Source: a virus (taxonomy: Duplodnaviria; Heunggongvirae; Uroviricota; Caudoviricetes). Taken from it: a stretch of DNA of 18,404 nt. Location of the stretch: the IMG/VR virus record IMGVR_UViG_3300029713_000154; one strand, 5' to 3'. A program made the translations under genes and the position numbers. The notes beneath the pieces are model-generated. The model made no database searches. It was not told where the DNA came from and saw only the letters and a list, made by a program, of their open reading frames with translations. This document shows positions 2,465-18,404 of this stretch, one piece after another (position 1 is the first letter of the stretch; each line of letters begins with the position of its first letter).

Positions 2465-2481
2465 AGCCCGGCGTTATTTTA
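2453..2481 (+). terminator. rho-independent terminator of the SPFH-NTase operon, shared with the convergent island operon
   Basis: CGCCGGGC (2453-2460), loop GTGAA, GCCCGGCG (2466-2473), then TTATTTTA. The NTase stop codon lies in the loop. The stop of the convergent 151-aa gene (2479-2481) lies in the T-tract. Confidence 0.6.
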
Positions 2482-2934
2482 CGGCTGATATTGCCAGCTA
2501 CTGACTAAAGCGTACAAGTGGTTTGGGGAATAGCGCCAACTCTCCTTTAATTGCAGAAATTCGGCACAAAATTCGCTGCAAAACAGGCGTTCACGCTGTT
2601 CTTTATTACCGGTAATAATTCCAAGCGCGCCGCGCCAATCATATTTTTTGCCATCATGTTTATGGAAAAACGCTTCCACGTCCTGAAGGCTGGCCTGGAG
2701 CGGCAGCATATCCCACTTATCCGCTGGCAATGGCATTATCTTTCCGCGTACACCGCGATCGCGCAGTGATGCAGAGTAACAAAGGTAACTCTTTTCACCA
2801 TGCTTAACGGCTAATTCACAGTGGGAATAACTACCGCGCGTGATTTTACGGGTAAGCCAGTCAGCCAGTCGGGCAATACCACGGTGCTCTGTTCGGCCCT
2901 TATAACAAGCGAGCCAGACAGTGGTTTTACTCAT
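2479..2934 (-). CDS. hypothetical protein, possible permuted papain-like/NlpC-P60 hydrolase (YiiX/YaeF, C92-like)
   Basis: 151-aa ORF whose ATG overlaps the chaperone stop (ATGA at 2931-2934). It has a His-containing motif GSYSHCELAV early and a Cys motif RLFCSEFCAEFL late. This His-before-Cys order is what I recall for permuted papain-fold amidases. The family call is tentative. Confidence 0.55.
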   Translation of the reverse strand: MSKTTVWLACYKGRTEHRGIARLADWLTRKITRGSYSHCELAVKHGEKSYLCYSASLRDRGVRGKIMPLPADKWDMLPLQASLQDVEAFFHKHDGKKYDWRGALGIITGNKEQRERLFCSEFCAEFLQLKESWRYSPNHLYALVSSWQYQP

Positions 2935-3545
2935 GCTTGCCAGCCTGTTGAATAATCGTAGTCGAGCACCGCCTGAATATCGTCCAGAGCTTCCACCGCC
3001 GCGATATGGTGCTGGGCATTGGCGAACAGGCGCATATCGTGATCCATTGTTACCGATTCAAACTGGGCGGCGATCTCGTTGGTTAACTCGATCAGACCGT
3101 TATTTTTAGTTTTCCACATTAACCCTGGAGGGATTTTTTTCTCCGCTCCCATTTTTGTGAGTGAGAGCTGTTGGATACGGCTGTTTGTATCACTGTGGAA
3201 GTGATGGTTGTTGATGATGATGTAATCGGTTGTGACGTAATCCCGTTTGGATTTTATTCTTCTTATTATATCCGCTTTTATTTCTGAAATAAATTTAAGC
3301 ATTGAATCTGTATCAACTATCCATTCTCCTTTTTTTAGTTTGTGAAATCTATCTGGTGGTGGCGTAGAGATAAAGGATAAATCTTCACAGTTAATCCAAA
3401 TTGGGATATTAGCTTTCGCATATGTCTGCCATTGCTGATCAGTTATTTCAACTAAATGTTCTACTTTAGGATAGTTGTAGTGTTCTGTATCGATCCAGTC
3501 CAGAACGATAAATGTTTCAGGATCAAAACAAGCATATTTTGTCAT
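2931..3545 (-). CDS. tail fibre assembly chaperone (Tfa/DUF4376-like)
   Basis: 204-aa ORF starting 6 nt downstream of the fibre gene. Central ...HHFHSDTNSRIQQLSL... and C-terminal ...AAVEALDDIQAVLDYDYSTGW resemble fibre-assembly proteins. The position is canonical for P2 G / Mu U. Confidence 0.75.
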   Translation of the reverse strand: MTKYACFDPETFIVLDWIDTEHYNYPKVEHLVEITDQQWQTYAKANIPIWINCEDLSFISTPPPDRFHKLKKGEWIVDTDSMLKFISEIKADIIRRIKSKRDYVTTDYIIINNHHFHSDTNSRIQQLSLTKMGAEKKIPPGLMWKTKNNGLIELTNEIAAQFESVTMDHDMRLFANAQHHIAAVEALDDIQAVLDYDYSTGWQA

Positions 3546-3551
3546 TTTTAA

Positions 3552-5378: not shown

Positions 5379-5380
5379 AA

Positions 5381-6028
5381 TTACTCCGGGTAAATAGATG
5401 TAATTTCAAGGCTCCATTGCCCTGTTCCGTAATAAATCGATGTGTTGTGCTGTACTTCCCGTATCTGGAAAGGTAAAACCGTCGTCAGTTCACCACCATA
5501 AAGTGCACAGCCAATAACAGGAATAGCACTTTGGTTAATGATCCAGACGATTAATGCTTCCAGTTTTGAACGTGTGTTTTTATATTCATGAATGAGTTCT
5601 ACCAAATCATTGAAAAGGTTTTCATCCAGGCCTTTATCCACCAGCGCTATATCCACCTTAAAAAAATAAGCCCTTCCCCCATATTCAAACCATTCTGAAA
5701 TAGTTCCTGGTAATGAGAGTATTTCCAGCACCCGCCGCACCGCCCAAATTGTTCCTTTATATTTATGCAGTTCAATGGCTTGTTTAATTAACTCGCGTTT
5801 CTCCCGCTCATCGGTGGTAAATAACCAACCTTCCAGCCCCTGAACGTGAAATTGTTCTGCAAGGGCTGGTAATGCCGAAGCATCAACCTGGTCGATCAGA
5901 TAAACCATCAACGCCGTCAGATCGAGTTGGGCAAAACGCTCGGCGGCGATATTTGCCAGAATCGAAAAACGCTCATCGCTGGCAAGCGGCGGCGGTGGCA
6001 GCAATTTATCCATCGCTGACTCCGGCAA
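5381..6028 (-). CDS. baseplate/tail protein, P2 gpI family
   Basis: 215-aa ORF between the gpJ-like and fibre genes. It overlaps gpJ by 23 nt and ends 2 nt before the fibre ATG. Size and position match P2 gpI. Confidence 0.8.
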   Translation of the reverse strand: MPESAMDKLLPPPPLASDERFSILANIAAERFAQLDLTALMVYLIDQVDASALPALAEQFHVQGLEGWLFTTDEREKRELIKQAIELHKYKGTIWAVRRVLEILSLPGTISEWFEYGGRAYFFKVDIALVDKGLDENLFNDLVELIHEYKNTRSKLEALIVWIINQSAIPVIGCALYGGELTTVLPFQIREVQHNTSIYYGTGQWSLEITSIYPE

Positions 6029-7121
6029 TCGTGACGTCTATTGCGGTGCATTCCGCCCACTCATGCGCCTGCAAAATACGTTTTGTAGGCATATTCAGCG
6101 CAACGTCATAGACGCCATCGACCTGTAACACTTTGATTATCTGGTTTGGCACAATGTCCTGCCCCAGATGTTTCTGCCGCTGTTGCGTCCAGAGGCTAAT
6201 CGCTTTACGCGCTGCAGCCAGCGTTGTCTCCTGATCGGCGGTGGTAAACAGCGTTAGCTGCGCACGGATCTCATATGGCACTCGAAGAGCGCATTTCGCA
6301 CTCACTTTGTCGGTCAGCGGACGTTTTTTCTCCTTGCTAACCTCCTGTTCAATTTGCGCGAGCAGTTCTATTCCCGGCAGTCCGTTCAGAGTTAGCGGGT
6401 AGATCTCCACGCAGCCTTCTGGCAATCCCTCGTCCGGCCCCAGTACTGCAACGTCAATAATCGACTGGCTAACAGAAAGCGTATGAAAGCGGTAGGCACC
6501 ATAGCTGCCCGCATTACTAAAGCTTTCTGGTGCCAGTTGGATACGCTGGCGCAATGCGTCATCGCTCTCTTCACCGCAGCCGCCCGTTGACGCAGTCAGG
6601 TTGGTTACGTTGATGTCATAATGACCAATCCTGTCGACCAGTGCGCTAATTTGTGCAGGCTGCCAGCCGTTACCCTGTTCACCTGCTGCGAGGCTGGTGG
6701 CAGGAACGGCGATATGCAAACTCCTGGCCGGAAGCAGAACATCTTCATCGGTGGCGAACATCACGCTATCAGAGGCACTGGCCCGCGTTCCCTGGGGAAT
6801 CAGGATATTGCTGGTATACGCGCTGACGACCGAAAACTGCAACGTCGTTTTTGCCGGCTGCGCAGGCAAACGGTGAACGCCCACCAACTCCCCTAAATAA
6901 TCCAGCATTGGCGCGCGGGAATACGCGACCAGGTTCTGTTTCGCCGCTTCCTGAATGGCGATGCGTACAAGGTTTTCACGATAGGCAAACAGGTCGATGA
7001 GCAACCGCTCAGCCTGTGCCGGATAGAGTTTTTTACCGCTGGCATCTTCGTATTGCGCAATCATCTCACTGGTAATTTGCGCAGGATCGCGGTCAATAAA
7101 ATTGGGTTCGGCTATCGCCAT
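6006..7121 (-). CDS. baseplate wedge protein, gpJ (Baseplate_J) family
   Basis: 371-aa ORF overlapping gpW by 10 nt. The N-terminus MAIAEPNFIDRDPAQITSEMIAQYEDASGKKLYPAQAERLLIDLFAYRE is typical of P2 J / Mu gp47-type proteins. Confidence 0.9.
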   Translation of the reverse strand: MAIAEPNFIDRDPAQITSEMIAQYEDASGKKLYPAQAERLLIDLFAYRENLVRIAIQEAAKQNLVAYSRAPMLDYLGELVGVHRLPAQPAKTTLQFSVVSAYTSNILIPQGTRASASDSVMFATDEDVLLPARSLHIAVPATSLAAGEQGNGWQPAQISALVDRIGHYDINVTNLTASTGGCGEESDDALRQRIQLAPESFSNAGSYGAYRFHTLSVSQSIIDVAVLGPDEGLPEGCVEIYPLTLNGLPGIELLAQIEQEVSKEKKRPLTDKVSAKCALRVPYEIRAQLTLFTTADQETTLAAARKAISLWTQQRQKHLGQDIVPNQIIKVLQVDGVYDVALNMPTKRILQAHEWAECTAIDVTIAGVSDG

Positions 7122-7471
7122 AACACCTCCGTTGAGTTGATAACGCCGTCAGCGGCGCGCCATTGCACACGTAACGTCAGATGTTCGCCGTCGATTACTG
7201 GTGTCACCTTCAGCAACCGACAGCGCGGCTCCCACTGGCGGATGGCTTCCACCGACTCCCGTACCACATGCGGAATTGCCCGCTCGATGGGGTAATCGAT
7301 GTAGTGCCACAAGTTGCTGCCAAACAGCGGTCTGTGGGGATCACTGCCGCGCGGTGTGCGCAGAATGATGTGTATTGCCTGGTGAATATCATCCAGTCCG
7401 CAGACGTATTCTTCAGGCCGCTGCAAGGCCGGTTGCCAGTGCAGCGTTGAGGGTCGTGTTTTTGTGTTCAT
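7112..7471 (-). CDS. baseplate wedge protein, gpW/T4 gp25 family
   Basis: 119 aa. The motif LRTPRGSDPHRPLFGSNLWHYIDYP...AIRQWEPR is characteristic of the GPW_gp25 family. No Shine-Dalgarno sequence precedes the ATG (GAAAATACCCTCATG). Confidence 0.9.
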   Translation of the reverse strand: MNTKTRPSTLHWQPALQRPEEYVCGLDDIHQAIHIILRTPRGSDPHRPLFGSNLWHYIDYPIERAIPHVVRESVEAIRQWEPRCRLLKVTPVIDGEHLTLRVQWRAADGVINSTEVLWR

Positions 7472-7477
7472 GAGGGT

Positions 7478-7534
7478 ATTTTCGCCCTGAACGGGCTGTG
7501 GCGATATTAAAGCGATTTAGAAAACTGATTGATT
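7478..7534 (-). promoter_or_regulatory. candidate activator-dependent late promoter (copy 2 of a conserved module)
   Basis: The minus-strand 31-mer AATCAATCAGTTTTCTAAATCGCTTTAATAT (7534 down to 7504) matches the 31-mer at 16094-16064 at 22/31 positions, ungapped. CTAAATC (7520-7514) is followed by exactly 30 nt and then GAAAAT (7483-7478). There is no -35 hexamer. Confidence 0.4.
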
Positions 7535-7564
7535 AAAAAGAGAAAACCCGCCATCAGGCGGGTT
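7531..7564 (-). terminator. rho-independent terminator between gpV and gpW
   Basis: Minus strand: AACCCGCC TGAT GGCGGGTT followed by TTCTCTTTTTAATC. It starts 5 nt after the gpV stop. Confidence 0.65.
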
Positions 7565-7569
7565 AAACG

Positions 7570-8271
7570 TCAGTGTGTATGGTGGTTGGAGTTGCCACCG
7601 CTGTCCTGCAATGCGCCGCTGGCCTGAACGTTGCCGATCACGTTGACATTGCCAGTTATCGTGGCGGCGTTACCGATGCCTCCACTTCCTGCCATCCCGC
7701 CAAGCCAGGTGAGTTTTTTCATTACCGTGACATTGCCAGTAAAGGTGCTCATGGGCGCATCTACCGTCACTGCTGCCGCTTTAACATCGACCTTAGTGGC
7801 GTCGATGCTGACATCGGTCGCTTTAATATCGACGGTATCGGAAGTCACGGTGACCTGTTGGGCTTTAATCTCAACGTTGGGTGATGTCAGGCGGGTACTG
7901 TCGATAACCTCAATCACGATTTTCTCGATACCGCCGTTAATCGTCAGCTGGTGGGTGCTGCGGTCATATTCAAACGCTGCGCCATCAGAAAACTGGACGT
8001 AACGTTTATCGCGCGAGGCCACAGGCGCGGTGTCAACCGTAGAATAAACTGCGCCCAGCACCACGCCATCTTCACCGTTATTGTCCAGCAGAACTTCCAC
8101 TTGCTCGCCCATATCCGGTAGCCAGTAGTCTTTATTGTCCTGGGAATTGCGTTGAAGTACCGCAAGCCAGTTGCTCTTCAGATTGTCACACTCCGGAAGC
8201 GTGACTCGCACCCGAACGCTGGTTTCGTCAATATCGCTGATAATCCCCGTTTGACGGGTTACTCCTTTCAT
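7570..8271 (-). CDS. baseplate central spike, gpV family
   Basis: 233 aa. The N-terminal OB-like region (GIISDIDETSVRVRVTLPECDNLKSNWLAVLQ) is followed by a repetitive beta-helix-like V/T/D-rich segment and a His-rich tip (NSNHHTH). Confidence 0.85.
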   Translation of the reverse strand: MKGVTRQTGIISDIDETSVRVRVTLPECDNLKSNWLAVLQRNSQDNKDYWLPDMGEQVEVLLDNNGEDGVVLGAVYSTVDTAPVASRDKRYVQFSDGAAFEYDRSTHQLTINGGIEKIVIEVIDSTRLTSPNVEIKAQQVTVTSDTVDIKATDVSIDATKVDVKAAAVTVDAPMSTFTGNVTVMKKLTWLGGMAGSGGIGNAATITGNVNVIGNVQASGALQDSGGNSNHHTH

Positions 8272-8280
8272 ATTTCCTCC

Positions 8281-9321
8281 TTACTGGCTGGTCGCTGGCC
8301 CGCGTGACACGTCGATTTCAGTGGTATAGCCGCTGCGCACAAAACTGTGAGTCGATTTATCAATCAGCCACTGACCGGAAAGCACGCCAAAATCGGTCAG
8401 TTCAATTTTATTGCCCGCCGTCAGTTCCGGGCAGCCCATCATCCTGAGCGTTCCGGTTTGTTGATATTCGTTGTGGCTGTCGAGCGCGGCGTTGGCCTTT
8501 GCCTGTGCCGCGCCAACGTCCGGCGCCCGACTGTTCAGTTTTAGCGTGTCGGCACTGGTGCCGACTCCACGGGTAGACGGTTTTTGCTGGCTGTCGTGGG
8601 TGTAGATAACCAGTTCTTTTTTCTTACTATTTTGATGCTGTACGGTGGCATTTTTGTAGATACGGTTAATGGTATCTTTGAAGGTGAAATGCGAAACGTC
8701 TTTGCGGTCGATCGTTTTTACCGGCGCCAGGCAGCGCAGCGTGGGTAAATGCGAAAAAATCAGTTCTTTGGTGGTCACCTTTACCGCATAGCCATATTCG
8801 CTGGCCAGGCGCTTGAGAAATCCGACATCGGTTTCACCATACTGCGTTACCCGGTCGATGGTGAGCGGCTCGATTTTGCCCACCAGTTTCAGACCGTGCG
8901 TTTGGGCGATACGGCTGGCGATAGCCGAAAGCGTCGTTTCTTCAAAGCCCTGGCTGTTACGGGTACGCAGCGCCTGATTGACGGAAGTGGCGATGCCATC
9001 AATATTTACCGTAGAAGGTGGCGCTGAAATATCAATTTTATCAATAATATACTGACCACAATCGAGCAGCTTTTCCCCCTGATAACCCATATGCAGCGCC
9101 AGCGTATCGCCTTTGCCGGGATACCACTCTTTTATCCAGCGTCCATCGGTGTCATCCAGTGTAATCGCGATGGTATCTGACTCGTTTTTGATGCTGTCGT
9201 GGTAACTGATGCTGGTGACATAGGGTGTGATGTCATAAGTGATATCTTTATGCCCATACCAGAGGGTAAAAATGGGCGTGAGTGTGGCAAAGACGCCACC
9301 AGTTACGCTTATCTCAGCCAT
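8281..9321 (-). CDS. baseplate hub, P2 gpD (late control D/VgrG-N-like) family
   Basis: 346-aa ORF directly after gpX, overlapping it by 13 nt. Size and order (U-X-D-V) match the P2 tail module. Confidence 0.85.
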   Translation of the reverse strand: MAEISVTGGVFATLTPIFTLWYGHKDITYDITPYVTSISYHDSIKNESDTIAITLDDTDGRWIKEWYPGKGDTLALHMGYQGEKLLDCGQYIIDKIDISAPPSTVNIDGIATSVNQALRTRNSQGFEETTLSAIASRIAQTHGLKLVGKIEPLTIDRVTQYGETDVGFLKRLASEYGYAVKVTTKELIFSHLPTLRCLAPVKTIDRKDVSHFTFKDTINRIYKNATVQHQNSKKKELVIYTHDSQQKPSTRGVGTSADTLKLNSRAPDVGAAQAKANAALDSHNEYQQTGTLRMMGCPELTAGNKIELTDFGVLSGQWLIDKSTHSFVRSGYTTEIDVSRGPATSQ

Positions 9322-9521
9322 GGTGGGATCTCCGATAAGGTTTTATTGACGGAAATGACCGGAATAATGAGCTGAATACCGGAAGGCAGTACCGGGTAAA
9401 TGGCGACATGTGGATTGGCGACGATTATGCGTTCATAAGCCAGCGCATCACCGTAGTAATGCCATGCCAGATTATCCCAGCGTTCGCCGTCGGTGGTGAT
9501 ATGTTCAAGGTATCGCATCAC
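9309..9521 (-). CDS. tail protein X (LysM-like), P2 gpX family
   Basis: 70 aa. MMRYLEHITTDGERWDNLAWHYYGD...ERIIVANPHV resembles gpX. There is a 4-nt overlap with the gpU-like gene. Confidence 0.85.
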   Translation of the reverse strand: MMRYLEHITTDGERWDNLAWHYYGDALAYERIIVANPHVAIYPVLPSGIQLIIPVISVNKTLSEIPPWLR

Positions 9522-10471
9522 CAGATCCTCGTAATGGTCGCGGCAGCAAGCTGGCTCACTGTGGGAGTGGTTTGTTGTACCGTTGTTCGTGCCTGATCAA
9601 CCAACGTTGCGGCTTTATCAAACGTCGCTTCGGCGATGTCGCTGGTAATGTCGTCGAAAAGCGCCTGAGCATGGTCAACCAGTGTACTGGCGTCATTGGC
9701 GCAGTCCCGGATACCTGGCATGTTACCCAGTAAAGTTTTAATCTGCGCCGACAACGCTTTTGGGAGTCCTGCCAGCGTTTGCAGATCCATTGGCTGTTTA
9801 AACAGGGTTTCGATGGCGTCGATTGTCTTTTTCAATGACGTAATTATCTTTTCACACTTTTCTTTTAACACTTTGGCCTCTTTAATCATTGCTTTCACTT
9901 TTGCCACCGTTTTTTTAATATCTTCAATGGCTTGTGTCAGTTCATCCAGCATCTCTTTGGCCTTACGCATACCTTCTTCGATGGCGTTTAATATCTGATC
10001 AAACCAGGACTCCACCATGTCGGGAAAATCGCTCGCCTTTTCCTCAATGTTAGGCTCCTGGGTGGTAATCGCCGGAGGTAAAAGTGGATTTTTAGGATCG
10101 CCGGTGTACTCCTGGAGCGACATCGTTCCGTTTTGGGCAATCACATTGCCCCAGGGATCGGTGTGCTGGTGGGTGGCGGTTAGCTCCGTAATTACAAACC
10201 AGCCGCGATAATCGCCATTGCCAAATACCAGTGCCATCGCCTTGTGAGCAAGCATGGCTTCACGCAGTCGATTAAGCTCTGTTGTGGGCTGGCAAAACTG
10301 GCTGTGCAGGGAAAATTCCAGCGCCAGCATATCCAGCTTATCGCCAATAAACTGCACACCGGGTTTGCCTTCTATACGGGCATGTGTGGCGTAATCCACG
10401 CCCATTGTGCTTTTAAAGCCGTCCCAGAATGCGACAACCTTAAATTCAATCTCTCCTAAAACGGCATACAT
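9518..10471 (-). CDS. tail protein, P2 gpU / Mu gp43(N)-type N-domain with long helical C-terminal extension
   Basis: 317 aa. The first ~125 aa (MYAVLGEIEFKV...GKPGVQFIGDKLDMLALEFSLHS...GDYRGWFVITELT) look like the GpU family. The remaining ~190 aa are Lys/Glu/Ala-rich and predicted coiled-coil. Confidence 0.75.
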   Translation of the reverse strand: MYAVLGEIEFKVVAFWDGFKSTMGVDYATHARIEGKPGVQFIGDKLDMLALEFSLHSQFCQPTTELNRLREAMLAHKAMALVFGNGDYRGWFVITELTATHQHTDPWGNVIAQNGTMSLQEYTGDPKNPLLPPAITTQEPNIEEKASDFPDMVESWFDQILNAIEEGMRKAKEMLDELTQAIEDIKKTVAKVKAMIKEAKVLKEKCEKIITSLKKTIDAIETLFKQPMDLQTLAGLPKALSAQIKTLLGNMPGIRDCANDASTLVDHAQALFDDITSDIAEATFDKAATLVDQARTTVQQTTPTVSQLAAATITRIW

Positions 10472-12846
10472 CAGGCATACCCCCGGCGCTGTTGTTGCGC
10501 CATTACGTCGTTAATCATTCTTTCAAGTTCGCGTTTACTCATCGTCAACACGTTCTGAATCTCTTTAGTGGTGTTTTGTCCGTTACCCTGCACGGTAATC
10601 TGTGGCGAAAAATTCACCTGAACTTTTCCAGAGGAACGGGAAGGTAGCGTCGCCGGTTTGGTTACGGATTTACCAGGTAAAGAGGCCAATGCGGGTTTGG
10701 CGGCTGTATTTTTTGCCGCAGGTGCCGATGGCGGCGTTGTCGTTTTACTGGATGGCGCGAGTTGTTTCCCCACCGGAGGCGTTAAAATCGCACCGGCAAC
10801 GCCTGGAACAACGCTCGCGGGGGAGACGGATGCGGTATTAGTCGTGCTTGTAATAGCTGTAGCCGATCCTTCTGTACTAATACCCATCGTGGTTTTTAGC
10901 CAGTCTGGGATGACGTTTTTGACCTGATCAATAATGCCTTTCAGAGCGGGGAAGGCATTCATTATGCCGTCGGCCAGGCTAGCCAGAAGATTGCTGCCGA
11001 ACTCGCTAAAACTCGCAGGCATTTCAACACCAAACCAATTCATCACACTGGAAAAGGCGCTATAGAACAACTCCAGCGGCGACCAGTCGAGAATTAACCG
11101 ACAAATTTCTGCAATGCCGCCGTCAAAGGCCGTGGTGATACGTTGCCAGATGGTAGAAAAGAACCTGGAGATAGGCTCCCAGTTGCGATAAATCAGATAA
11201 GCAGCGCCCGCAATCGCAGTGATGACCAGACCAATGGGATTCATCAATAAAACCCTACCCAACCAGAAGACGGTCTGACCTGCCTGTTTCAGTGCGCCAA
11301 TCAGGCCACGACCAAGCAGTTGCGTTAGCCATTTTGCACCGCCACCCAATGACTTAACCGCTGATAGCATCTTACTTGCCCCGCCTGTGAGTGCCAGACT
11401 TGCCCTGACTTTCAGGAAGATATCGACCAGACGAATAAACGGCGAGGCGATGAAGTTCGCGCCCAGTTTTAAAACATTCAGCGCGCCGTTAAACAGCCAA
11501 ATCGCCCCGACGATTTTCGCAATGTTTTGCACCAGTGCCGGGTGCTCACGTAGCCAGGCGCTGAACTGGCGAACAACCGGCGTAAGGCTTTGTGCCAGCT
11601 CGCCAATCAGCGGCATTAATTGCAAGCCAATGCTGAGCCATAAATCATTTAACGCCAGCTGTAACGCTTTAGTCTGTTCAATGGGCGAGGCCATTTGCGC
11701 AGAAAAGTCGGCATCAATCAGATTCTTGCTGCTGGCTTGCATGGCAGAGGCTTTTAACTGGCGATATTCCTCCATATTCGCCAGCATAGGTGCCAGGAAT
11801 TCCACAGTTTGCGCATCGCCGAACATTTCGCCCAGATTAAATTGCGTCACCATCGATTGCAGCGCATTGCTGCGAGCAGATAAATCTTCAATCTGCATAG
11901 TGCGTTTGAAGGTGCCGAGGATCGCCGGATTCATCTTCTCAAGCTGCATTTGCACGATATGAGTCATGGCTTCGCTAACACCCATACCGTTTTGCTGATG
12001 CTCAAGCAGAGAGCCTTGCAGATCAACGCCCTGGCTGGCGAACCAGTTATCGGTTTTTTTCGAAAAGGTGGTTTGCAGAAAGTGGTCGAAATTCTCCGCC
12101 GCCGCACTGGCGCTGGCCCCGTTTTTCATGGCGATCTGCATGATGGCGGTCAGTTCAGCCATACCTTCCAGACCCTGAGCGCCGGTTTTACCTGCAAATT
12201 TCTCTATCCACTGCGTTTGTTCGGCAACGGCAGGCCCACCGCTTTTGCTAATGCCATACATCATGTTTTGCGTGGCGTGGAAATTTTCCGGGGCAATATT
12301 CAATCGATCATGAGTCGCGAGCGCGGCATTCGCCCACGTTTCAGCACTTTCGCGCGTGGCGGTGGCAGCTTTGGCGATCTCCGGCATATAACGGTTGAGA
12401 TCCTGCATCGACGACAAATTGCCTTCGATCAGCGTTTGGGCTGCGTTCTGTAAGGTGGTCTGCTGCTGGTTAAAATCCATGCTCCAGTCGCGCAGATTAA
12501 GGCTGAGCGTCTCGCGGGTTGTAGCATTCATCCCACCTTTGGTCGCCATATTGACCATGTTGTCCTGGAACTCATATGGCAACTTCCAGTCGGGGGCTTC
12601 AACATTGAATACCTTGCTAAATTGCCCGGCAAATGTTTGGGTTTTCTCCATTAGATCAGCGCGGTTCCGGCTATTTTCCTCCAGGCGGAGAGCAGAATCG
12701 GCAAGTTGCTGCGTTAGTTTGATTACTGTCGCTTGCTGAGAAGAGAGAGCTAACAAAGTTCTGGCGTTGAGTGAGCCGTAACGGGCTATTGCCTGCGTCA
12801 ACGTCTCATTACGCGCCTGAAGCTGGGTAATAATATCGTTGGCCAA
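10471..12846 (-). CDS. tail tape measure protein
   Basis: 791 aa, helical and Ala/Gln-rich, with central hydrophobic segments and a Pro/Ser/Thr-rich tail. It sits after the chaperone pair. The only start after the upstream in-frame TAA is TTG at 12846, with AAGAGA upstream. Confidence 0.9.
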   Translation of the reverse strand: MANDIITQLQARNETLTQAIARYGSLNARTLLALSSQQATVIKLTQQLADSALRLEENSRNRADLMEKTQTFAGQFSKVFNVEAPDWKLPYEFQDNMVNMATKGGMNATTRETLSLNLRDWSMDFNQQQTTLQNAAQTLIEGNLSSMQDLNRYMPEIAKAATATRESAETWANAALATHDRLNIAPENFHATQNMMYGISKSGGPAVAEQTQWIEKFAGKTGAQGLEGMAELTAIMQIAMKNGASASAAAENFDHFLQTTFSKKTDNWFASQGVDLQGSLLEHQQNGMGVSEAMTHIVQMQLEKMNPAILGTFKRTMQIEDLSARSNALQSMVTQFNLGEMFGDAQTVEFLAPMLANMEEYRQLKASAMQASSKNLIDADFSAQMASPIEQTKALQLALNDLWLSIGLQLMPLIGELAQSLTPVVRQFSAWLREHPALVQNIAKIVGAIWLFNGALNVLKLGANFIASPFIRLVDIFLKVRASLALTGGASKMLSAVKSLGGGAKWLTQLLGRGLIGALKQAGQTVFWLGRVLLMNPIGLVITAIAGAAYLIYRNWEPISRFFSTIWQRITTAFDGGIAEICRLILDWSPLELFYSAFSSVMNWFGVEMPASFSEFGSNLLASLADGIMNAFPALKGIIDQVKNVIPDWLKTTMGISTEGSATAITSTTNTASVSPASVVPGVAGAILTPPVGKQLAPSSKTTTPPSAPAAKNTAAKPALASLPGKSVTKPATLPSRSSGKVQVNFSPQITVQGNGQNTTKEIQNVLTMSKRELERMINDVMAQQQRRGYA

Positions 12847-12947
12847 AATTGTTTCTCTTTAATTATTGATAATGGCCCACTGGTTATTTTTCTAAAAAAG
12901 GGGCTGGGAAGAAATAAACCTGGCGGGCTTTGAAGAACTCGCAGACA

Positions 12948-13076
12948 TCAGGTCTGCGAGCCATATTCGATCTTTATTTGGTCGCTGGCTTCATCCAGCC
13001 AGTTGCTAAAGTCATCTATGGTGAGCGCGTCTATCTCACTGGGTGGAAAGCGAAACCATCTCGCCAGTAGCGCCAT
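12948..13076 (-). CDS. GpE-family segment (E' extension of the tail assembly chaperone; frameshift product or small independent ORF)
   Basis: The frame +1 relative to gpE encodes ...RWFRFPPSEIDALTIDDFSNWLDEASDQIKIEYGSQT*. This resembles the conserved F-x-W-P-P-S-E...W motif of the P2 E+E' C-terminus as I recall it. An in-frame ATG at 13076 would give 42 aa. Confidence 0.55.
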   Translation of the reverse strand: MALLARWFRFPPSEIDALTIDDFSNWLDEASDQIKIEYGSQT

Positions 13077-13353
13077 TGCCTGCCATAGCTGGGGAGGATT
13101 CTGTAACCACGGTAAGCATGGATTGAAATCGTTTCTGCAATGCCTGGTAATCCAGCAAATCCATTTCAGCTAAATCTTCTGGCACCAGTCCGGTCATCGC
13201 CGCCATTAGCGGTTCATCCCACTCTTCGGGTTTTTCGCTGATCCGGCGCGCGTTGCGCATATCTTTTACTTTCAGGCGACGTAATTGCAGCGAGTCGATA
13301 GTATTTCCTGCTGCCGACGTAAATGGGAACTGTAAGATATAATGCTCTTTCAT
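13036..13353 (-). CDS. tail assembly chaperone, P2 gpE-like
   Basis: 105-aa acidic ORF between the tube and tape measure genes, with an AAGGA SD. ...RLKVKDMRNARRISEKPEEWDE... is typical of gpE-like chaperones. Confidence 0.8.
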   Translation of the reverse strand: MKEHYILQFPFTSAAGNTIDSLQLRRLKVKDMRNARRISEKPEEWDEPLMAAMTGLVPEDLAEMDLLDYQALQKRFQSMLTVVTESSPAMAGNGATGEMVSLSTQ

Positions 13354-13378
13354 TTTGTATCCTTATTTATGTTGCGAA

Positions 13379-13400
13379 GTTCGGGGCCGTAGCCCCGAAT
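13379..13400 (-). promoter_or_regulatory. intercistronic GC-rich stem-loop after the tube gene
   Basis: Minus strand: ATTCGGGGC TACG GCCCCGAAT (9-bp stem), starting 3 nt after the tube stop. There is no U-tract. It could be an mRNA-stabilising or attenuating structure separating highly expressed sheath/tube genes from the chaperone and TMP genes. Confidence 0.4.
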
Positions 13401-13403
13401 AAT

Positions 13404-13928
13404 TTAGCCACCGATGTTATTGCGATAGGTACTTAATTGATCCACGCCGTTAACCCGAAAAATATTCGCCATATAATCAAGTTCAAGCAGCGTTTCACCA
13501 TCGACCACTTGTTTAATATAAGTACAACCAAAGGCGCTGCTGAATTCCGGGTTTTCATTCTGTTTAAATGTGCCCAAGGGATTCTTTTTAAACATCACGG
13601 TTAAATGTGTCACTAACGCTAATTGATTCGCTTTCCCCTGGGAGTTATAGCAATCAATACTGGAGCGGCACTGTAATGCTACTGCCTGCCACGGGTTTGC
13701 CGTTTTACGCATTACGTCCTGATAAAAGGAGTTCCATTTAATTTCCCCCTCCAGTTTATCGAAACCAGCCGGGAGTTCGATTTTACCGACCATACCCAGT
13801 GCTTTATGCTCTTGCATAATTAAACTGACATCCGGCAATTTAATTTCGGTTGCACGACCTAAAAGATTATTACCATCGAGATAAATATTGGCGTTGGTAA
13901 TACGGTTAATTTGAATTTTTCCAGCCAT
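13404..13928 (-). CDS. tail tube protein, P2 FII family
   Basis: 174 aa, immediately after the sheath gene (TAATG overlap). The N-terminus MAGKIQINRITNANIYLDGNNLLGRATEIKLPD is typical of FII-type tubes. Confidence 0.9.
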   Translation of the reverse strand: MAGKIQINRITNANIYLDGNNLLGRATEIKLPDVSLIMQEHKALGMVGKIELPAGFDKLEGEIKWNSFYQDVMRKTANPWQAVALQCRSSIDCYNSQGKANQLALVTHLTVMFKKNPLGTFKQNENPEFSSAFGCTYIKQVVDGETLLELDYMANIFRVNGVDQLSTYRNNIGG

Positions 13929-15358
13929 TAGCTATTGCTCTCCAGAGAGACTAAATATTCAGAAGTAATTTCAGTTTCAAACGTCAGACGTTCCAGCGGC
14001 GGCGGCGGGGTGAATTTATAGCTAAGCAATAAATGCCCGGCGCTGAGTTCAGCCGGTGAATTTCGCGCCGGATCGTACCAGCACTCAAAGCCAAGCAGTG
14101 CGCCGTCGGCAATCAGTTTTCGGCCCCAGGTATTTACCGATTCGGTCAGCGCGTCAATAAGAGCCTGATTAATCGGCATATCAATATACTGCTGACTGAA
14201 ATAACGGATTGACTCATTAATTACATCGCCTGTCCGGCGAACGTTTTCAAAGTTACGCATATGGGTCACGGTAGGCCATGCCGCTGTGCGGTTGCCCCAC
14301 AAGCGCAGACCAGAACCGTAACTATTGAAAATAGTGGTAATGCCGTTTTCGTTGAGCTGATTCACTTCGCTTTGTGGATCATCAATCATTGCAGAAAGCG
14401 AACGTTCAATACCGGTAATACCCTGAATTTCCTGGTTTGAGTTGCTCCACCAGAAACCTTTTTCGAGGTCTACTTTGGCACGTAGCCCGGCAGCGCGCGA
14501 AGAGAGTGGTTCGAGAACTTCCTGGTTAGTGATGCCATCGTAAACTTTGACGTGTGGGTAACATAAACGCACACGATCAGAGCTGGTATTGAAGTTGATA
14601 GCCCCTTGCGAACCGCGTCCAGCCAATACCTGCTGGAATGTCGTCCCAATCGGAGCATCAATGTAGGTAAGCGCACCGAGTTTTTCCGCTTGTGCAATCA
14701 GCTCAGTAGTTACTGATTTTTGCGTACAAAACACGGGAGCAAGCAGGATTTTGGCGTAGAAACCGTACAGGTTATAGGTGTCCTGAAGGAGTTTCATCCC
14801 CGTGCGGTCGCCTGCGGTATTTACGGCACCGATAATATCGGCTGCGGTGACCTTTGTAGGGTCGCACCAGGAATAATAGGCGCAAACTTTCGCACCAGGA
14901 GGAATGTCGGCTCCTTTACGGGTAATTATGCCTGTTTGTTCATCTACGCTAAATGCTGCGGTGTTAAAGGTTGATGAATTTGATGAAGAGGGCTTTAGTA
15001 CCACGTTACGCACATTGCGGTGAGCGAGCTTCGCCTGGTTGTTAGCGTCAAAAGTGATACTCTCATTGCTGATGTTGGAGCCATGTTTTGCCGGATCCAG
15101 CACGTTAATCACCACCACCGTACCGGCACCGTGGTCATAAATCGCCTTCAGTGCCTGTGGGATCGTAAAGTTAGCCTGAGTCGAGCCAAACTGCGCAGCA
15201 TCGCTTTCAGAAAGGCATAATGTTGGTTTATTTACCGGACCGCAGGGGGCCGTACCGATTAAAGCGATGACGGCGGATTTTACCGCTTTAACCGGACGCG
15301 GGCCGGTTTCAATTTCAATGGTTTCTACACCGTGCAGGTAATTAGCTGCCATGTACAA
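13928..15358 (-). CDS. contractile tail sheath protein, P2 FI / Mu L family
   Basis: 476 aa. The position, the N-terminus (YLHGVETIEIETGPRPV) and the C-terminal LRLWGNRTAAWP motif are consistent with myophage sheath proteins. Confidence 0.95.
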   Translation of the reverse strand: MYMAANYLHGVETIEIETGPRPVKAVKSAVIALIGTAPCGPVNKPTLCLSESDAAQFGSTQANFTIPQALKAIYDHGAGTVVVINVLDPAKHGSNISNESITFDANNQAKLAHRNVRNVVLKPSSSNSSTFNTAAFSVDEQTGIITRKGADIPPGAKVCAYYSWCDPTKVTAADIIGAVNTAGDRTGMKLLQDTYNLYGFYAKILLAPVFCTQKSVTTELIAQAEKLGALTYIDAPIGTTFQQVLAGRGSQGAINFNTSSDRVRLCYPHVKVYDGITNQEVLEPLSSRAAGLRAKVDLEKGFWWSNSNQEIQGITGIERSLSAMIDDPQSEVNQLNENGITTIFNSYGSGLRLWGNRTAAWPTVTHMRNFENVRRTGDVINESIRYFSQQYIDMPINQALIDALTESVNTWGRKLIADGALLGFECWYDPARNSPAELSAGHLLLSYKFTPPPPLERLTFETEITSEYLVSLESNS

Positions 15359-15539
15359 TTTCCTCTACGTTATTTTGTTCTTCCTGAGTGATGACAGGAG
15401 TCAGATGATTGCGGGCAATCATGGTCATGACCCACTCGTTGTCTTCTGGCAGATCAATTTCACTGTTCGGCCACAATAAGATTTCTTGTCCATCGGCAAG
15501 GGTGACGCCGCTTGCCGGGCCGTTGTAGATGTATTTCAT
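15342..15539 (-). CDS. small tail-module protein (Mu gp38/DUF2635-like by position)
   Basis: 65-aa ORF overlapping both neighbours (ATGA with the upstream gene, 17 nt with the sheath gene). The assignment is by synteny with Mu/BcepMu-type tail modules only. Confidence 0.55.
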   Translation of the reverse strand: MKYIYNGPASGVTLADGQEILLWPNSEIDLPEDNEWVMTMIARNHLTPVITQEEQNNVEEIVHGS

Positions 15540-15991
15540 TCAGTTTCCTCGTAGTTAACTTCCGTAAGCAGGGGAAGATCCGTGCTTTCCTGTTCAGCGA
15601 TAAACAGCGAGCTGGTCGCCATTTCCAGGATGTAGCGGCAGAAACCGCCGCTCTCACCCGTATTAATTTCTTTTTCAAGCCAAAGCAGACGATCGCAATC
15701 AGGAAGCTGAAGGCCGCCCAATGCGCTGCGTATGCAATCAAGTGCGTTTAACGCGTCACAATTTTTGTCAACAATAACGGTGGCGGTTAAGCGGAGTATT
15801 TGCTGTTGCACGATGGCATCACTGCTTTCGGGTGTGGTAAAGACAGAACCGCTATAATTAATAATCACTGCAACTTGTTGTGTCTGTGGAATATATTTCT
15901 GGGCATCCGTAGATGAAATAAATATATCCATTTCAGGATGCCGATCACGTAATTTGACCATGACATAATTCATTGCAGATAAAATTTTCAT
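15536..15991 (-). CDS. tail completion/terminator-like protein (Mu gp37 / BcepMu Gp37-like by position)
   Basis: 151-aa ORF that is the first gene of the tail block. The family call rests on synteny (gp37-gp38-sheath-tube) and size, not on a recognised motif. Confidence 0.55.
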   Translation of the reverse strand: MKILSAMNYVMVKLRDRHPEMDIFISSTDAQKYIPQTQQVAVIINYSGSVFTTPESSDAIVQQQILRLTATVIVDKNCDALNALDCIRSALGGLQLPDCDRLLWLEKEINTGESGGFCRYILEMATSSLFIAEQESTDLPLLTEVNYEETE

Positions 15992-16037: not shown

Positions 16038-16094
16038 ATTATGAAGCAGTGAAGGTGAAGAATCTTTTAATGTGATTTAGAGAAAAAATTGAAT
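16038..16094 (-). promoter_or_regulatory. candidate activator-dependent late promoter (copy 1 of a conserved module)
   Basis: Minus-strand 31-mer ATTCAATTTTTTCTCTAAATCACATTAAAAG (16094 down to 16064). CTAAATC (16080-16074) is followed by exactly 30 nt and then CATAAT (16043-16038). The -35 position reads AAGATT, a poor match, as expected for Mor/C-type activated promoters. Confidence 0.4.
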
Positions 16095-16097
16095 GGC

Positions 16098-16133
16098 TAT
16101 AAAAAATCCCCACACTTACGTAAAGGTGGGGAT
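16098..16133 (-). terminator. rho-independent terminator between the lysis cassette and the tail genes
   Basis: Minus strand: ATCCCCAC, a 12-nt loop, GTGGGGAT, then TTTTTATAG. The hairpin begins 4 nt after the stop of the 104-aa gene. Confidence 0.7.
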
Positions 16134-16137
16134 GTAT

Positions 16138-16452
16138 TTAATAACTGCCACGTTGTAACAGCTCGATTTTGCTATATAAGGCATCCAGCTTTGCTTCTAA
16201 TACTGCTTGCCCACGAAGATAATCTTCTCTGCGGACATAATGCAGCGGAAGCTCGGCACGAAATTCAAGAAACTCTCTTTCCAGTTTCGACCAACTTGTT
16301 TCTGATTCCCTGCGGGCATTTTCCAGAGACTCAAAACGCTCATTAAGTCGTTTTTCAATTTGCGCTAACAGCAGTTTTCCGGCAGCAAACATTAATCCAA
16401 CGAAGGAAAGCATAAGGGAGATCACTTCCCAAAAATCGATACTGAGTTTCAT
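16138..16452 (-). CDS. N-terminally membrane-anchored coiled-coil protein (i-spanin-like or Mu gp25/DUF2730-like lysis accessory)
   Basis: 104 aa with a strong GAGGGG SD. It has one TM helix (VISLMLSFVGLMFAAGKLLLA) followed by a charged helical region containing ELPLHYVRREDYLRGQAVLEAKLDAL. It is the last gene of the lysis block. Confidence 0.65.
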   Translation of the reverse strand: MKLSIDFWEVISLMLSFVGLMFAAGKLLLAQIEKRLNERFESLENARRESETSWSKLEREFLEFRAELPLHYVRREDYLRGQAVLEAKLDALYSKIELLQRGSY

Positions 16453-16464
16453 CGGCCCCTCTGA

Positions 16465-17070
16465 TTAGTGAAGACAGCTTGCCTGTCCCCAGAGTAAATA
16501 GCGGGCAGCGTGTTGATAGAGAATCATCTTTGGATAGCGACGATTTTCTCGCCAGTTCGCGGCGCTGCGCCCGGCGTTGACTTGCTCGACATGACCAAAC
16601 CAGCGAGTGGCATCTAACCCTTTGGATGCAGCCAGTTTTTTATCCCGGTTAACCCACCCCTGACCGCCGTTATAGGCGCTTAGGGTAAACGCCATACGCT
16701 GACAGTCATTTTGCGCAGAGATGTTTTTCCACAAATGCTGGTCATATTGCACCAGCGCGCGAATCGCCCAGGTTGGGTTATACGGTTTGTTTTCACGCAA
16801 TTGTGGATACAACTGGCTTATCCATGTCGCAGTAGCAGGCATAAATTGCGCCATACCTTGTGCGCCAACGGGGGAACGTACCATTGGCTGCCAGGCGGAC
16901 TCCTGGTGTAATTGCCCGGCAAAGTCGGCCACTGGGGCATTCAGCCCCCAGACTTCTCGAGCTGTACGAATTAGTTCGTTTCGCCATGCCAGAGAGGCTC
17001 GCGGCGGTTCAGAGGCGTTAAGCGGGAAAAGAACGAAAATAATCATAGACGCGATATATTTCAGCCACAT
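16465..17070 (-). CDS. lytic transglycosylase endolysin (SLT domain) with N-terminal signal/SAR-like segment
   Basis: The catalytic-region motif AGQLHQESAWQPMVRSPVGAQGMAQFMP (E-S ... GLMQ-like) is typical of family-1 lytic transglycosylases. I prefer ATG 17070 (MWLKYIASMIIFVLFPLNASEPP...), 2 nt after the holin stop, over the track start at 17148. That start would overlap the holin by 76 nt and add an Arg-rich non-signal leader. Confidence 0.85.
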   Translation of the reverse strand: MWLKYIASMIIFVLFPLNASEPPRASLAWRNELIRTAREVWGLNAPVADFAGQLHQESAWQPMVRSPVGAQGMAQFMPATATWISQLYPQLRENKPYNPTWAIRALVQYDQHLWKNISAQNDCQRMAFTLSAYNGGQGWVNRDKKLAASKGLDATRWFGHVEQVNAGRSAANWRENRRYPKMILYQHAARYLLWGQASCLH

Positions 17071-17072
17071 CA

Positions 17073-17360
17073 CTATAGCCCTAAGGCGACGGAAAGACAG
17101 ACGGCGGCAACGATGATGGCGCGGCGAATCATTGCCGCCGCGCAGCAACGCGGTTCCTTCCAGGGGCTAAAAGAGTCAGGCCGTGCCCAGGGGAACAAAC
17201 TGCGATCGAGCCAGTATCCCAGAACCGCGGAAAGCGAAACCAGGCTTAGTTTATAAATGACGACCGGGATCTGTGCTGAAGAGGTCCAGCCGATCACGAC
17301 AAACAGCGCGACGGAAGCGACCAGCCAGCCGGAAAGCCGGGGAAAAGTGACTTTTTTCAT
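17073..17360 (-). CDS. putative holin (multi-TM small membrane protein)
   Basis: 95 aa with a strong AGGAG SD. There are three hydrophobic segments (WLVASVALFVVIGW, IYKLSLVSLSAVLGYWL, AIIVAAVCLSVALGL). It is the first gene of the lysis block, directly upstream of the endolysin. Confidence 0.7.
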   Translation of the reverse strand: MKKVTFPRLSGWLVASVALFVVIGWTSSAQIPVVIYKLSLVSLSAVLGYWLDRSLFPWARPDSFSPWKEPRCCAAAMIRRAIIVAAVCLSVALGL

Positions 17361-17656
17361 ACGATATCTCCTGATAAGTGAGCGTTTAGTGTCGTCAGAA
17401 CCCGCCAGTGAAGAATGAAAAAAGCTTTAATAAATAAGTTTAAAAAATAGATTCTCTATAAATGAACATGCCCGCTAATAAATCGACTCAGCAATTAAAG
17501 AGCAAACGGTGACCTGGCGAATAAGCGCGTCATTATGCAGGGAAAAGATGATGGTGGATCGTAGGAATAGTCGATAGTTATTTGATTTTTAAAGTTTGTT
17601 TAAGAAAGTCAGCGACTGTGAGGGAAACGATCTTTTTACACTACAGGTAAAAATAA

Positions 17657-17676
17657 TACTGTATGTGCATACAGTA
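17657..17676. promoter_or_regulatory. LexA (SOS) operator
   Basis: TACTGTATGTGCATACAGTA is a perfect CTGT-N8-ACAG palindrome. It differs at one central base from the E. coli recA operator as I recall it (TACTGTATGAGCATACAGTA). Flanking hexamers sit at recA-like positions on both strands:
- Minus strand: ACGATA (17680-17675) and TATTAT (17658-17653).
- Plus strand: ATAATA (17653-17658) and TATCGT (17675-17680). Confidence 0.8.
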
Positions 17677-17697
17677 TCGTGTAAAATGATACTCCTG

Positions 17698-17728
17698 TTG
17701 ACAAGAAACATAACACAAACAATATATT
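17698..17728 (+). promoter_or_regulatory. possible sigma70 promoter upstream of the Mor-family gene
   Basis: TTGACA (17698-17703) and TATATT (17723-17728), but the spacer is a long 19 nt. This is weak support only. Confidence 0.25.
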
Positions 17729-17896
17729 TATTTAGTGAATTTATGCGTACATTAATATTAAGAATTTATATTTCTGGTGATTGTTTATTTGTTTGTTGAA
17801 TGTATTGAGTAGCAGTAATGACAACTGCTTAGCGTATATCCGTGGTTTTACACGCATCGGGTCTTATTCAGGATGCAAGATATATGGAGATGAAAA

Positions 17897-18238
17897 ATGA
17901 TACGAAAATCAAAAGAGATGGCCCGGACACCGGAGATCATTAACGACCTGGCTTTTCATGCATCGCAAGTTCTGATTGAAAGCATCAATCTCGACAGTTC
18001 ATCGGCAGAAAATGTGGGTTTTGCCATTGCCGACCGAATGATGCGTAACTGGGGCGGACAAAGCATTTATTTCCCTAAGGGGATCTCCGGACGAGCATCG
18101 GAGCGTGACTACCAAATCTATAGCGAGTGCGATGGGCGCAACTACGCCGAATTAGCGAAGAAATATAATCTGACGCTGCAATGGATTTATAAGATAGTCA
18201 AACGTGTACATACGGAGAAGCAGCAGAGTCGTATGTAG
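17897..18238 (+). CDS. Mor/C-family late transcription activator
   Basis: 113 aa with GGAG 7 nt upstream of the ATG. The C-terminal half NWGGQSIYFPKGISGRASERDYQIYSECDGRNYAELAKKYNLTLQWIYKIVKR matches the Mor-family pattern (G..IYIPK ... R...I...F.G.N..ELA.KY.LS...IY.I). Confidence 0.85.
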   Translation: MIRKSKEMARTPEIINDLAFHASQVLIESINLDSSSAENVGFAIADRMMRNWGGQSIYFPKGISGRASERDYQIYSECDGRNYAELAKKYNLTLQWIYKIVKRVHTEKQQSRM

Positions 18239-18256
18239 TGGTGATTGCACCGACAT

Positions 18257-18287
18257 GGCGAGTAGCGATATGGGGTCGCAACTCGCC
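18257..18287. terminator. stem-loop in the 61-bp spacer between the Mor-family gene and lysC
   Basis: GGCGAGT-A-GCGA, loop TATGGGG, TCGC-A-ACTCGCC (7 + 4 bp). There is no clear U-tract on either strand, so terminator function is uncertain. Confidence 0.3.
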
Positions 18288-18299
18288 TGTACTGGTCGT

Positions 18300-18404
18300 T
18301 TACTCAAACAAATTACTATGCAGTTTTTGCACCACCTGCTCGGCATCTTCGCCGGGCACCAGGAAGCACAGGTTATGGCTGGATGCGCCGTAACAAATCA
18401 TGCG
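18300..18404 (-). CDS. lysC: aspartokinase III, 3' end (partial; continues beyond the window)
   Basis: The reverse-strand translation RMICYGASSHNLCFLVPGEDAEQVVQKLHSNLFE* matches the C-terminus of E. coli LysC as I remember it. The stop codon is the complement of 18300-18302. Confidence 0.9.
   Translation of the reverse strand, partial: RMICYGASSHNLCFLVPGEDAEQVVQKLHSNLFE

Follow-up and report, generated by a model that had tools for sequence, protein, structure and literature searches.

A conserved LexA operator upstream of a Mor-family activator gene suggests SOS control of a tailocin-like island in Escherichia coli and related genera

Introduction

How can a chromosomal cluster of phage tail and lysis genes be held silent, and called up, when it carries no repressor gene of its own? 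The question is raised by the IMG/VR virus record IMGVR_UViG_3300029713_000154 (Caudoviricetes), a stretch of 18,404 nucleotides (the window), in which a contractile-tail operon and a lysis cassette are divergent from mor, a gene encoding a Mor/C-family late transcriptional activator. Between the lysis cassette and mor lies a 20-nt palindrome, TACTGTATGTGCATACAGTA, which a preliminary description of this DNA had taken for a near-consensus operator (box) of LexA, the host repressor of the SOS response to DNA damage. Here we analyzed the quality, the conservation, and the surroundings of this box. The results led us to propose that the island encodes an SOS-gated tailocin, in which LexA would repress mor and Mor would then activate the lysis and tail operons. 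We assign this reading a probability of about 0.6.

A LexA operator in the control region of mor

17657–17676, no strand assigned: LexA (SOS) operator TACTGTATGTGCATACAGTA, recognized from its sequence, heterology index, and conservation
17897–18238, plus strand: mor, Mor/C-family late transcriptional activator of 113 amino acids, recognized from Pfam and PHROG matches

The box reads exactly as had been claimed, a perfect CTGT-N8-ACAG in the divergent control region, and its close likeness to the recA operator was also confirmed: the recA upstream region of an E. coli genome reads cacTTGATACTGTATGAGCATACAGTATAATtgc, and the two sites differ by a single base, at position 10. Compared with the LexA consensus TACTGTATATATATACAGTA (as in PMC8072944), 17 of the 20 positions match, and the three mismatches are all central. 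The heterology index, calculated with a matrix that we assembled ad hoc out of 33 LexA sites of E. coli, is 4.2–4.4, which rates the box as a high-quality operator and agrees with its description as near-consensus; recA and sulA score 5.0 and 3.9, respectively, with the same matrix. Published heterology indices of Salmonella SOS genes extend from 1.5 to ~13.

The bare CTGT-N8-ACAG core occurs once in the window, where 0.13 copies are expected, and at least one copy was found in 21 of 200 shuffled windows. The full 20-mer is a much rarer object. According to the exact score distribution, 1e-4 to 6e-4 sites of this quality are expected per window, and 0.03–0.16 sites as good as the box per 5-Mb genome. 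The box is the only site in the window with a heterology index of 9 or below; the next best sites score 12.7 and 13.7, both inside tail genes. Since so few sites of this quality are expected by chance, we regard the box as a real operator and not as a chance occurrence. Judged by its sequence, 17657–17676 is thus confirmed as a genuine LexA operator, which LexA would be expected to occupy. In the literature searched, we found no report of this box as a LexA site.

Conservation of the operator across genera

Loci for comparison were gathered through the Mor protein and not through the box, by a scan of one genome per species and by look-ups of the encoding contigs. A strong LexA box is present 220–291 bp upstream of mor in all the islands recovered except two lineages. 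The box-bearing loci are three further E. coli alleles, those of Salmonella, Dryocola, Phytobacter, and two Superficieibacter species, and the loci L083, L084, and L086 from metagenome assemblies, the position of the box being kept in at least five genera. L086 and L085, one of the lineages considered below, are shorter contigs that give partial island context only.

Salmonella box: AACTGTATATATATACAGTA, heterology index 0.6
Dryocola box: TACTGTTTATTTATACAGTA, heterology index 1.8
Phytobacter box: TACTGTATATGCATACAGTA, heterology index 3.3
Superficieibacter box: GACTGTATATGCATACAGTA, heterology index 5.9

The CTGT and ACAG half-sites are invariant and the central four bases are highly variable. 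Likewise, the differences among the four E. coli alleles (ATGTGCAT, ATATGTAT, ATGTGTAT, and ATGTACAT) are confined to the box center. In a six-taxon alignment, in which the intergenic region is 59% identical overall, 15 of the 20 box positions are invariant, compared with 22% of the intergenic columns (binomial P 8e-7). Fixed half-sites around a free center are the pattern that constraint by LexA contacts would produce. A search with a degenerate box-plus-flank pattern retrieved 17 viral contigs, which, being selected by the pattern, are informative on variation of the box center only; the Salmonella box itself, when sought as an exact string, had no match among viral contigs. Among 70 distant Mor loci, which include those of Pectobacterium, Burkholderia, Pseudomonas, Chromobacterium, and Haemophilus, none has, in the 800 bp around mor, a site whose heterology index is 11 or lower.

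Mor and the absence of a dedicated repressor

The assignment of the mor product is clear from its matches to PF08765 (E 2.2e-37, residues 10–112) and to PHROG 532, annotated as late transcriptional activator (E 3.6e-35). The holin and the lysin were similarly borne out, by PF13272 and SLT matches. The Mor protein shares 81–91% identity with its orthologues from the other lysC-linked islands, and 51% with the Pectobacterium rdgB product; truncated variants also exist.

The claim that the island contains no CI/Cro/PrtR-like ORF (open reading frame) held, and extends to RdgA-like ORFs: none was found in the RefSeq annotation, in Pfam and PHROG scans that covered ORFs both with and without annotation, or by tblastn with RdgA. 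In addition, tblastn found no S24 or Ner-like homologue in the window, and no helix-turn-helix (HTH) or S24 ORF that could be a dedicated self-cleaving Peptidase_S24 repressor occurs in the window with or near mor. Comparable systems have a phage-type self-cleaving repressor (RdgA, PrtR, or CI), whose place is here most likely taken by the host LexA, and we infer that LexA may be the sole repressor of the island.

Related arrangements were observed in betaproteobacteria. In Chromobacterium (L028, L030, L032, and L036; 68–76% amino-acid identity) and Rivihabitans (L065; 55–71%), mor is divergent from the gp37, sheath, and tube genes, with neither a lysis cassette between mor and gp37 nor a LexA box. 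A small ORF upstream of the Rivihabitans mor looks Ner-like by eye and has no Pfam match. A phage-like order is seen in three other loci (L046, L057, and L058), where the holin and SLT genes lie downstream of mor and are codirectional with it.

Induction of the Salmonella orthologue by DNA damage

The Salmonella orthologue of mor is STM14_5073 (348 bp, plus strand, at the mor position). In the RNA sequencing (RNA-seq) data for S. Typhimurium 14028, this gene is up 4.08-fold (49 to 205) with sublethal nalidixic acid (PMC8072944 Dataset S1). The Salmonella box given above comes from strains other than 14028 and LT2. We consider mor to be a probable unlisted member of the SOS regulon in Salmonella and some E. 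coli. None of the lysis and tail genes, STM14_5042–5072, is among the genes listed as at least 2-fold up in the same dataset, the listing being ranked by fold change and cut short at its most repressed end only. For this reason, activation of the late genes by Mor is not visible there.

Promoter-like elements of the lysis and tail operons

2479–15991, minus strand: contractile-tail structural operon (RefSeq annotation of the identical region of E. coli EC9, Pfam and PHROG matches)
16138–17360, minus strand: lysis cassette (Pfam Holin_2-3 and SLT, PHROG 462 lipoprotein, RefSeq annotation)
17073–17360, minus strand: holin (Pfam PF13272, Holin_2-3)
16465–17070, minus strand: SLT transglycosylase (Pfam SLT)
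16138–16452, minus strand: lipoprotein/membrane protein (PHROG 462 lipoprotein)
17425–17447, minus strand: lysis-operon upstream element TTTTTTAAACTTATTTATTAAAG, with a -10-like GACACT at 17393–17388
16099–16131, minus strand: intrinsic terminator after the lysis cassette, CCCCAC...GTGGGG and then a T-run
16038–16088, minus strand: tail-operon upstream element TTTTTTCTCTAAATCACATTAAAA (16088–16065) with a -10-like CATAAT (16043–16038)

The lysis and tail operons, separated by a conserved terminator (GGGGATTTTTTAT, alignment A5), are each preceded by an element of their own. TTTTTTAAACTTATTTATTAAAG is located ~64 nt upstream of the holin start codon, a distance conserved across taxa, and the stretch 17427–17446, which overlaps it, ties with 17669–17688 at the LexA box as the most conserved 20 nt of the intergenic DNA. 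TTTTTTCTCTAAATCACATTAAAA is located 73–88 nt upstream of the gp37 start codon in six taxa and is followed by a conserved -10 of the form nAnAAT. The two elements share a motif composed of a T-run, N10, and ATTAAA(A)G. The pattern T-run, N8–14, ATTAAAR has exactly two copies in the window, both on the minus strand, where 0.15 are expected. Neither element has a recognizable -35, a lack that is typical of activator-dependent late promoters. TTTTTTAAACTTATTTATTAAAG and TTTTTTCTCTAAATCACATTAAAA are therefore likely candidates for Mor-dependent late promoters.

Promoter candidates overlapping the operator

17679–17688, no strand assigned: block GTGTAAAATG adjoining the box, invariant in five of six aligned taxa and ATGTAAAGTG in Dryocola
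17659–17687, plus strand: candidate LexA-repressed mor promoter, -35 CTGTAT (17659–17664), 17-bp spacer, -10 TAAAAT (17682–17687)
17658–17685, minus strand: candidate LexA-repressed leftward promoter, -35 TTTACA (17685–17680), 16-bp spacer, -10 TACAGT (17663–17658)
17653–17680, minus strand: geometry proposed in the preliminary description, ACGATA (17680–17675), 16-bp spacer, TATTAT (17658–17653)
17698–17728, plus strand: E. coli-specific promoter-like pair, TTGACA (17698–17703), 19-bp spacer, TATATT (17723–17728)

The box and the adjoining GTGTAAAATG block form one conserved unit, lost jointly in L081 and L085. The block contains both the plus-strand -10 TAAAAT and the minus-strand -35 TTTACA. 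Promoter candidates were scored, with sigma-70 weights likewise assembled ad hoc, in nine sequences (the six taxa, the Phytobacter-like L086, and another two E. coli alleles). For the mor-facing candidate, the predicted start is at ~17694 and the score 5.3; in most box-bearing taxa it ranks third or better on the plus strand. Its -10 is conserved (TAAAGT in Dryocola). An A-tract lies upstream at 17648–17658, and A-tracts are found upstream of the box in every taxon.

The recA-like hexamers pointed out earlier, ACGATA/TATTAT on the minus strand and ATAATA/TATCGT on the plus strand, are indeed present, and ACGATA-16-TATTAT parallels the TTGATA-16-TATAAT of recA. Their conservation is limited to E. 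coli and Dryocola, TATTAT not being kept in Salmonella, Phytobacter, or Superficieibacter, and the bases before ACGATA are 'tac' and not 'cac'. Only in the E. coli alleles does the TTGACA-19-TATATT pair score highest on the plus strand; its spacer is suboptimal, and its perfect TTGACA is not conserved in other genera and is TTGATA in one E. coli allele.

LexA bound to the box would block the mor-facing candidate, the leftward candidate, and the geometry proposed earlier alike. We favor mor as the main target of the box because of the RNA-seq result, the conserved upstream A-tracts, and the promoter-like element that the lysis operon has for itself. The leader of a mor transcript displays only a 5-bp GCACC/GGTGC pairing, with no covariation and broken in E. 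coli, and no Rfam or other known RNA family was found in 17300–18404. Small conserved ORFs in the intergenic regions were considered and rejected: the ORFs have no Pfam matches and are not conserved, and the alignment is indel-rich.

The foremost alternative is that the box mainly or also controls the leftward TTTACA-16-TACAGT promoter into the holin and lysis genes, with Mor expressed from another promoter or with both directions gated. Lysis would in that case be under the direct control of LexA, as it is in colicin operons. The leftward candidate (predicted start ~17651) matches at 9 of 12 positions and is the sole match of the promoter scan in 17300–17950. In all nine box-bearing sequences, it outscores every other conserved candidate, whichever the strand (7.5, or 5.8 in Dryocola). 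Both of its hexamers fall in invariant columns, and the E. coli minus-strand flanks also resemble the recA promoter. However, TACAGT belongs to every LexA half-site, and its conservation consequently carries no independent weight. A transcript from this promoter would also need a ~290-nt leader, in which neither a conserved ORF nor an Rfam element was found; the holin is preceded by a conserved element of its own that recurs before the tail operon; and the Salmonella holin and tail genes are missing from the list of at least 2-fold induction by nalidixic acid, on which mor appears. We therefore consider leftward control unlikely, and we found no evidence that the box drives the holin/lysis operon, at which the minus-strand geometry had been said to point.

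Island and genomic setting

540–2464, plus strand: slipin/SPFH-family gene and RlaP-type nucleotidyltransferase gene, left end of the E. coli island

The segment 16400–18404 is 100% identical to several complete E. coli chromosomes, and at least 80% of it is carried by ~189 of 5426 complete E. coli genomes (~3.5%). In EC9, the island is flanked by yjbD and lysC. The plus-strand mor converges with the 3' end of lysC, and the 536-bp gap between the lysis cassette and mor is AT-rich (34% G+C versus 49% for the window). The tail operon encodes gp37, sheath, tube, chaperone, tape measure, baseplate, fibre, and fibre assembly proteins. Together with the lysis cassette, this completes the gene set of an R-type tailocin (sheath, tube, tape measure, baseplate, fibre, and lysis cassette), and the EC9 annotation contains no head, packaging, replication, or integration genes in the island. 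Judged by its genes, the island is built like an R-type tailocin that descends from a tail module of the Mu/BcepMu type.

The island is syntenic with Salmonella STM4198–STM4219 (~78% nucleotide identity). Outside E. coli, full islands were recovered from several metagenome assemblies and from Salmonella, Dryocola, Phytobacter, and two Superficieibacter species, and every one of them abuts lysC and keeps the gene order, with the tail genes, the lysis genes, and then the divergent mor. The slipin and RlaP genes, for which PADLOC gave no match, are missing from the Salmonella island; RlaP also borders the reduced L085 island. In Salmonella Infantis SARB27 (L002, 7586–10421), a gtrABC-type O-antigen glucosylation operon (STM4204–4206) interrupts the tail cluster between baseplate genes W and V.

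The literature searched mentions STM4198–STM4219 as a marker in polymerase chain reaction assays and in screens only, and we found no characterization of the locus in it. The locus is not among the genes of a dam-mutant transcriptome paper, and a kosakonicin review holds nothing on regulation. A paper on an ST131 'tailocin' was set aside as a source on this island, since it concerns a different, P2-like prophage.

Loss of the operator and decay of the island

The system is not maintained everywhere: the box is lost in two lineages and parts of the island in several. The Enterobacter-like L081/L082 (1996–2500) and L085 (1921–2500) are without both the box and the GTGTAAAATG block. L085 has also lost all tail genes, the order being RlaP, lysis cassette, and mor, and carries at the box position a different perfect 16-bp palindrome, TGCTTTTATAAAAGCA. 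Two Salmonella contigs (L088 and L089) have undergone deletion of both the tail and the lysis genes as well as of the LexA box, and an intact mor is kept beside lysC with only ~140 bp of upstream region. Two further conserved intergenic blocks are found at 17582–17635, TTGATTTTTAAAGTTTGTTTAA and the GATC-containing ACGATCTTTTT; the former is kept even in lineages without the LexA box. These blocks could be sites for a nucleoid protein or an activator.

In E. coli AR_0013 (L077, 3290–3340 and 5190–5215), the ISL3-family element ISEc53, with a ClbS/DfsB-like gene, is inserted exactly at the center of the box (window equivalent 17663–17670; allele TACTGTATGTACATACAGTA, 8-bp target duplication ATGTACAT). 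The box is split by ISEc53 in eight complete genomes, including IAI39, CE10, and MS 21-1. Because the insertion splits the operator and both overlapping promoter candidates, these strains would be natural operator knock-outs.

Such losses raise the second alternative, namely that the box binds LexA in a cryptic island with no tailocin output, Mor being targetless or co-opted for unlinked host genes. The low frequency of the island in E. coli, the decay in L081, L085, L088, and L089, the eight ISEc53 insertions, the truncated Mor variants, and the lack of observed induction of the Salmonella late genes are all compatible with this view, and the RdgB control of pectin lyase in Pectobacterium offers a parallel for co-option. 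Nevertheless, the structural and lysis ORFs of EC9 are all intact, with none flagged in RefSeq, the two related late-promoter elements are conserved, and the regulatory blocks have been selectively kept in intergenic DNA that is only ~59% identical across genera, where the island proteins are 75–94% identical. We judge a cryptic island to be rather improbable, somewhat more so than leftward control. That the palindrome arose by chance, serves another protein, or is a mere ISL3 insertion target with no role for LexA is highly improbable: the bare core does occur in ~10% of shuffled windows, an ISL3 element did insert at the palindrome center, and L085 does have another palindrome at the same position, but the full 20-mer is expected ~1e-4 times per window, its cross-genus conservation fits the LexA contact positions, and the orthologous gene is inducible by DNA damage.

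Discussion

The reading that we prefer, an SOS-gated tailocin, can be set out as follows. The window would contain a domesticated tailocin island of the Mu/BcepMu type beside lysC. In the undamaged cell, a LexA dimer on 17657–17676 would block RNA polymerase at an overlapping compact promoter core, the most likely target being the rightward promoter with its -10 at 17682–17687. DNA damage would activate RecA and cause self-cleavage of LexA, allowing transcription of mor. Mor would then act on the activator-dependent promoters of the lysis cassette and the tail operon, both marked by the T-run, N10, ATTAAA(A)G motif, and the presumed outcome would be tail particles and lysis.

Several observations weigh against this proposal. 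At the box itself, the -35 of the mor-facing candidate is weak and lies inside the operator, the mor transcript would have a long leader of ~200 nt, and the best consensus promoter over the box is oriented away from mor. In E. coli, mor could also be expressed independently of LexA from TTGACA-19-TATATT, which lies downstream of the operator. Two lineages, L081/L082 and L085, have kept the synteny without the box. In Salmonella, mor has a substantial basal signal and only 4-fold induction, the lysis and tail genes do not appear among the induced genes, and STM14_5073 is absent from the LexA-box gene table of PMC8072944 and from the earlier lists compiled there. The last omission might be explained by an annotated small ORF that covers the box, or by 14028 having a different allele. 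We also count against our proposal that the LexA matrix and the sigma-70 weights were assembled ad hoc.

A more far-reaching version can be put forward only tentatively. LexA may be the sole gatekeeper of one bidirectional core, from which Mor would be expressed rightward and a pioneer lysis transcript leftward; the island would then be an anciently domesticated tailocin without a repressor, common to Escherichia, Salmonella, Dryocola, Phytobacter, and Superficieibacter, Mor a bona fide and hitherto unlisted member of the enterobacterial SOS regulon, and the whole the first Mu-type tailocin under direct LexA control.

It is well known that tailocins are induced in the SOS response through a repressor-activator relay and that LexA directly controls colicins and phage antirepressors. 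What is new here is the combination: a Mor/RdgB-type activator linked to a Mu-type tail cluster, with a single canonical LexA operator in the place of the self-cleaving repressor, at one chromosomal site in several genera. Carotovoricin is a Mu-type tailocin under RdgA and SOS control (PMC13566846). The RecA/RdgA/RdgB system of Pectobacterium carotovorum likewise has a Mor-family output regulator, a DNA-damage signal, and a Mu-type contractile tailocin. In Pectobacterium (L007), however, the HTH and Peptidase_S24 repressor RdgA is encoded directly upstream of rdgB with no LexA box nearby, whereas the window has no RdgA-like ORF and has a canonical LexA operator in the control region instead. 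Moreover, mor is linked to the tail cluster in the window, whereas the carotovoricin clusters have no linked regulator (PMC13566846). The PrtR/PrtN pyocins of P. aeruginosa and the CI-like/Ogr system of Burkholderia BceTMilo consist of a RecA-sensitive repressor, an activator, and tail/lysis genes (PMC5411513). Their two-tier logic is the same as that proposed for the island; they encode their own repressor, however, and their activators PrtN and Ogr are unrelated to Mor, whereas the first tier in the window would be the host LexA.

Other systems share single features with the island. The operator of recA overlaps promoter hexamers, and the box overlaps promoter-like ones on both strands. The activators Mor and C of phage Mu belong to the same family (PF08765) as the one encoded in the window, and phage Mu itself is not known to be controlled by LexA. 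Colicin operons are under direct LexA control, with tandem overlapping LexA boxes at their promoters. As in our proposal, a bacteriocin-type weapon and a lysis function are thereby wired into the LexA regulon. The box in the window, unlike those of colicin promoters, is single and not tandem and stands 296 bp from the holin start codon, and the likely direct LexA target is a regulator gene and not the structural genes. In coliphage 186 and the Gifsy prophages, the product under LexA control is an antirepressor directed at the phage repressor, and in phage GIL01, LexA is the main repressor. In all three, a phage-derived element makes direct use of LexA, as it would here; compared with 186 and Gifsy, the island has neither antirepressor nor repressor and no genome to replicate. 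Gifsy dinI-like genes are listed as LexA-regulated (PMC8072944).

Tailocins are in development as precision antibacterials and shape competition among gut Enterobacteriaceae. Natural variants of the present island provide ready-made controls, with the box split by ISEc53 in IAI39 and CE10 and lost in the Enterobacter-like lineage. If our proposal is true, some E. coli and Salmonella lineages have a lethal lysis module within their SOS regulon, which would have a bearing on quinolone responses and on SOS-dependent heterogeneity (studied in PMC8072944). If LexA alone gates Mor, the island would be governed by a minimal, host-integrated switch composed of one operator, one activator, and two late promoters, and this would explain how a phage remnant could lose its repressor and yet stay safely silent.

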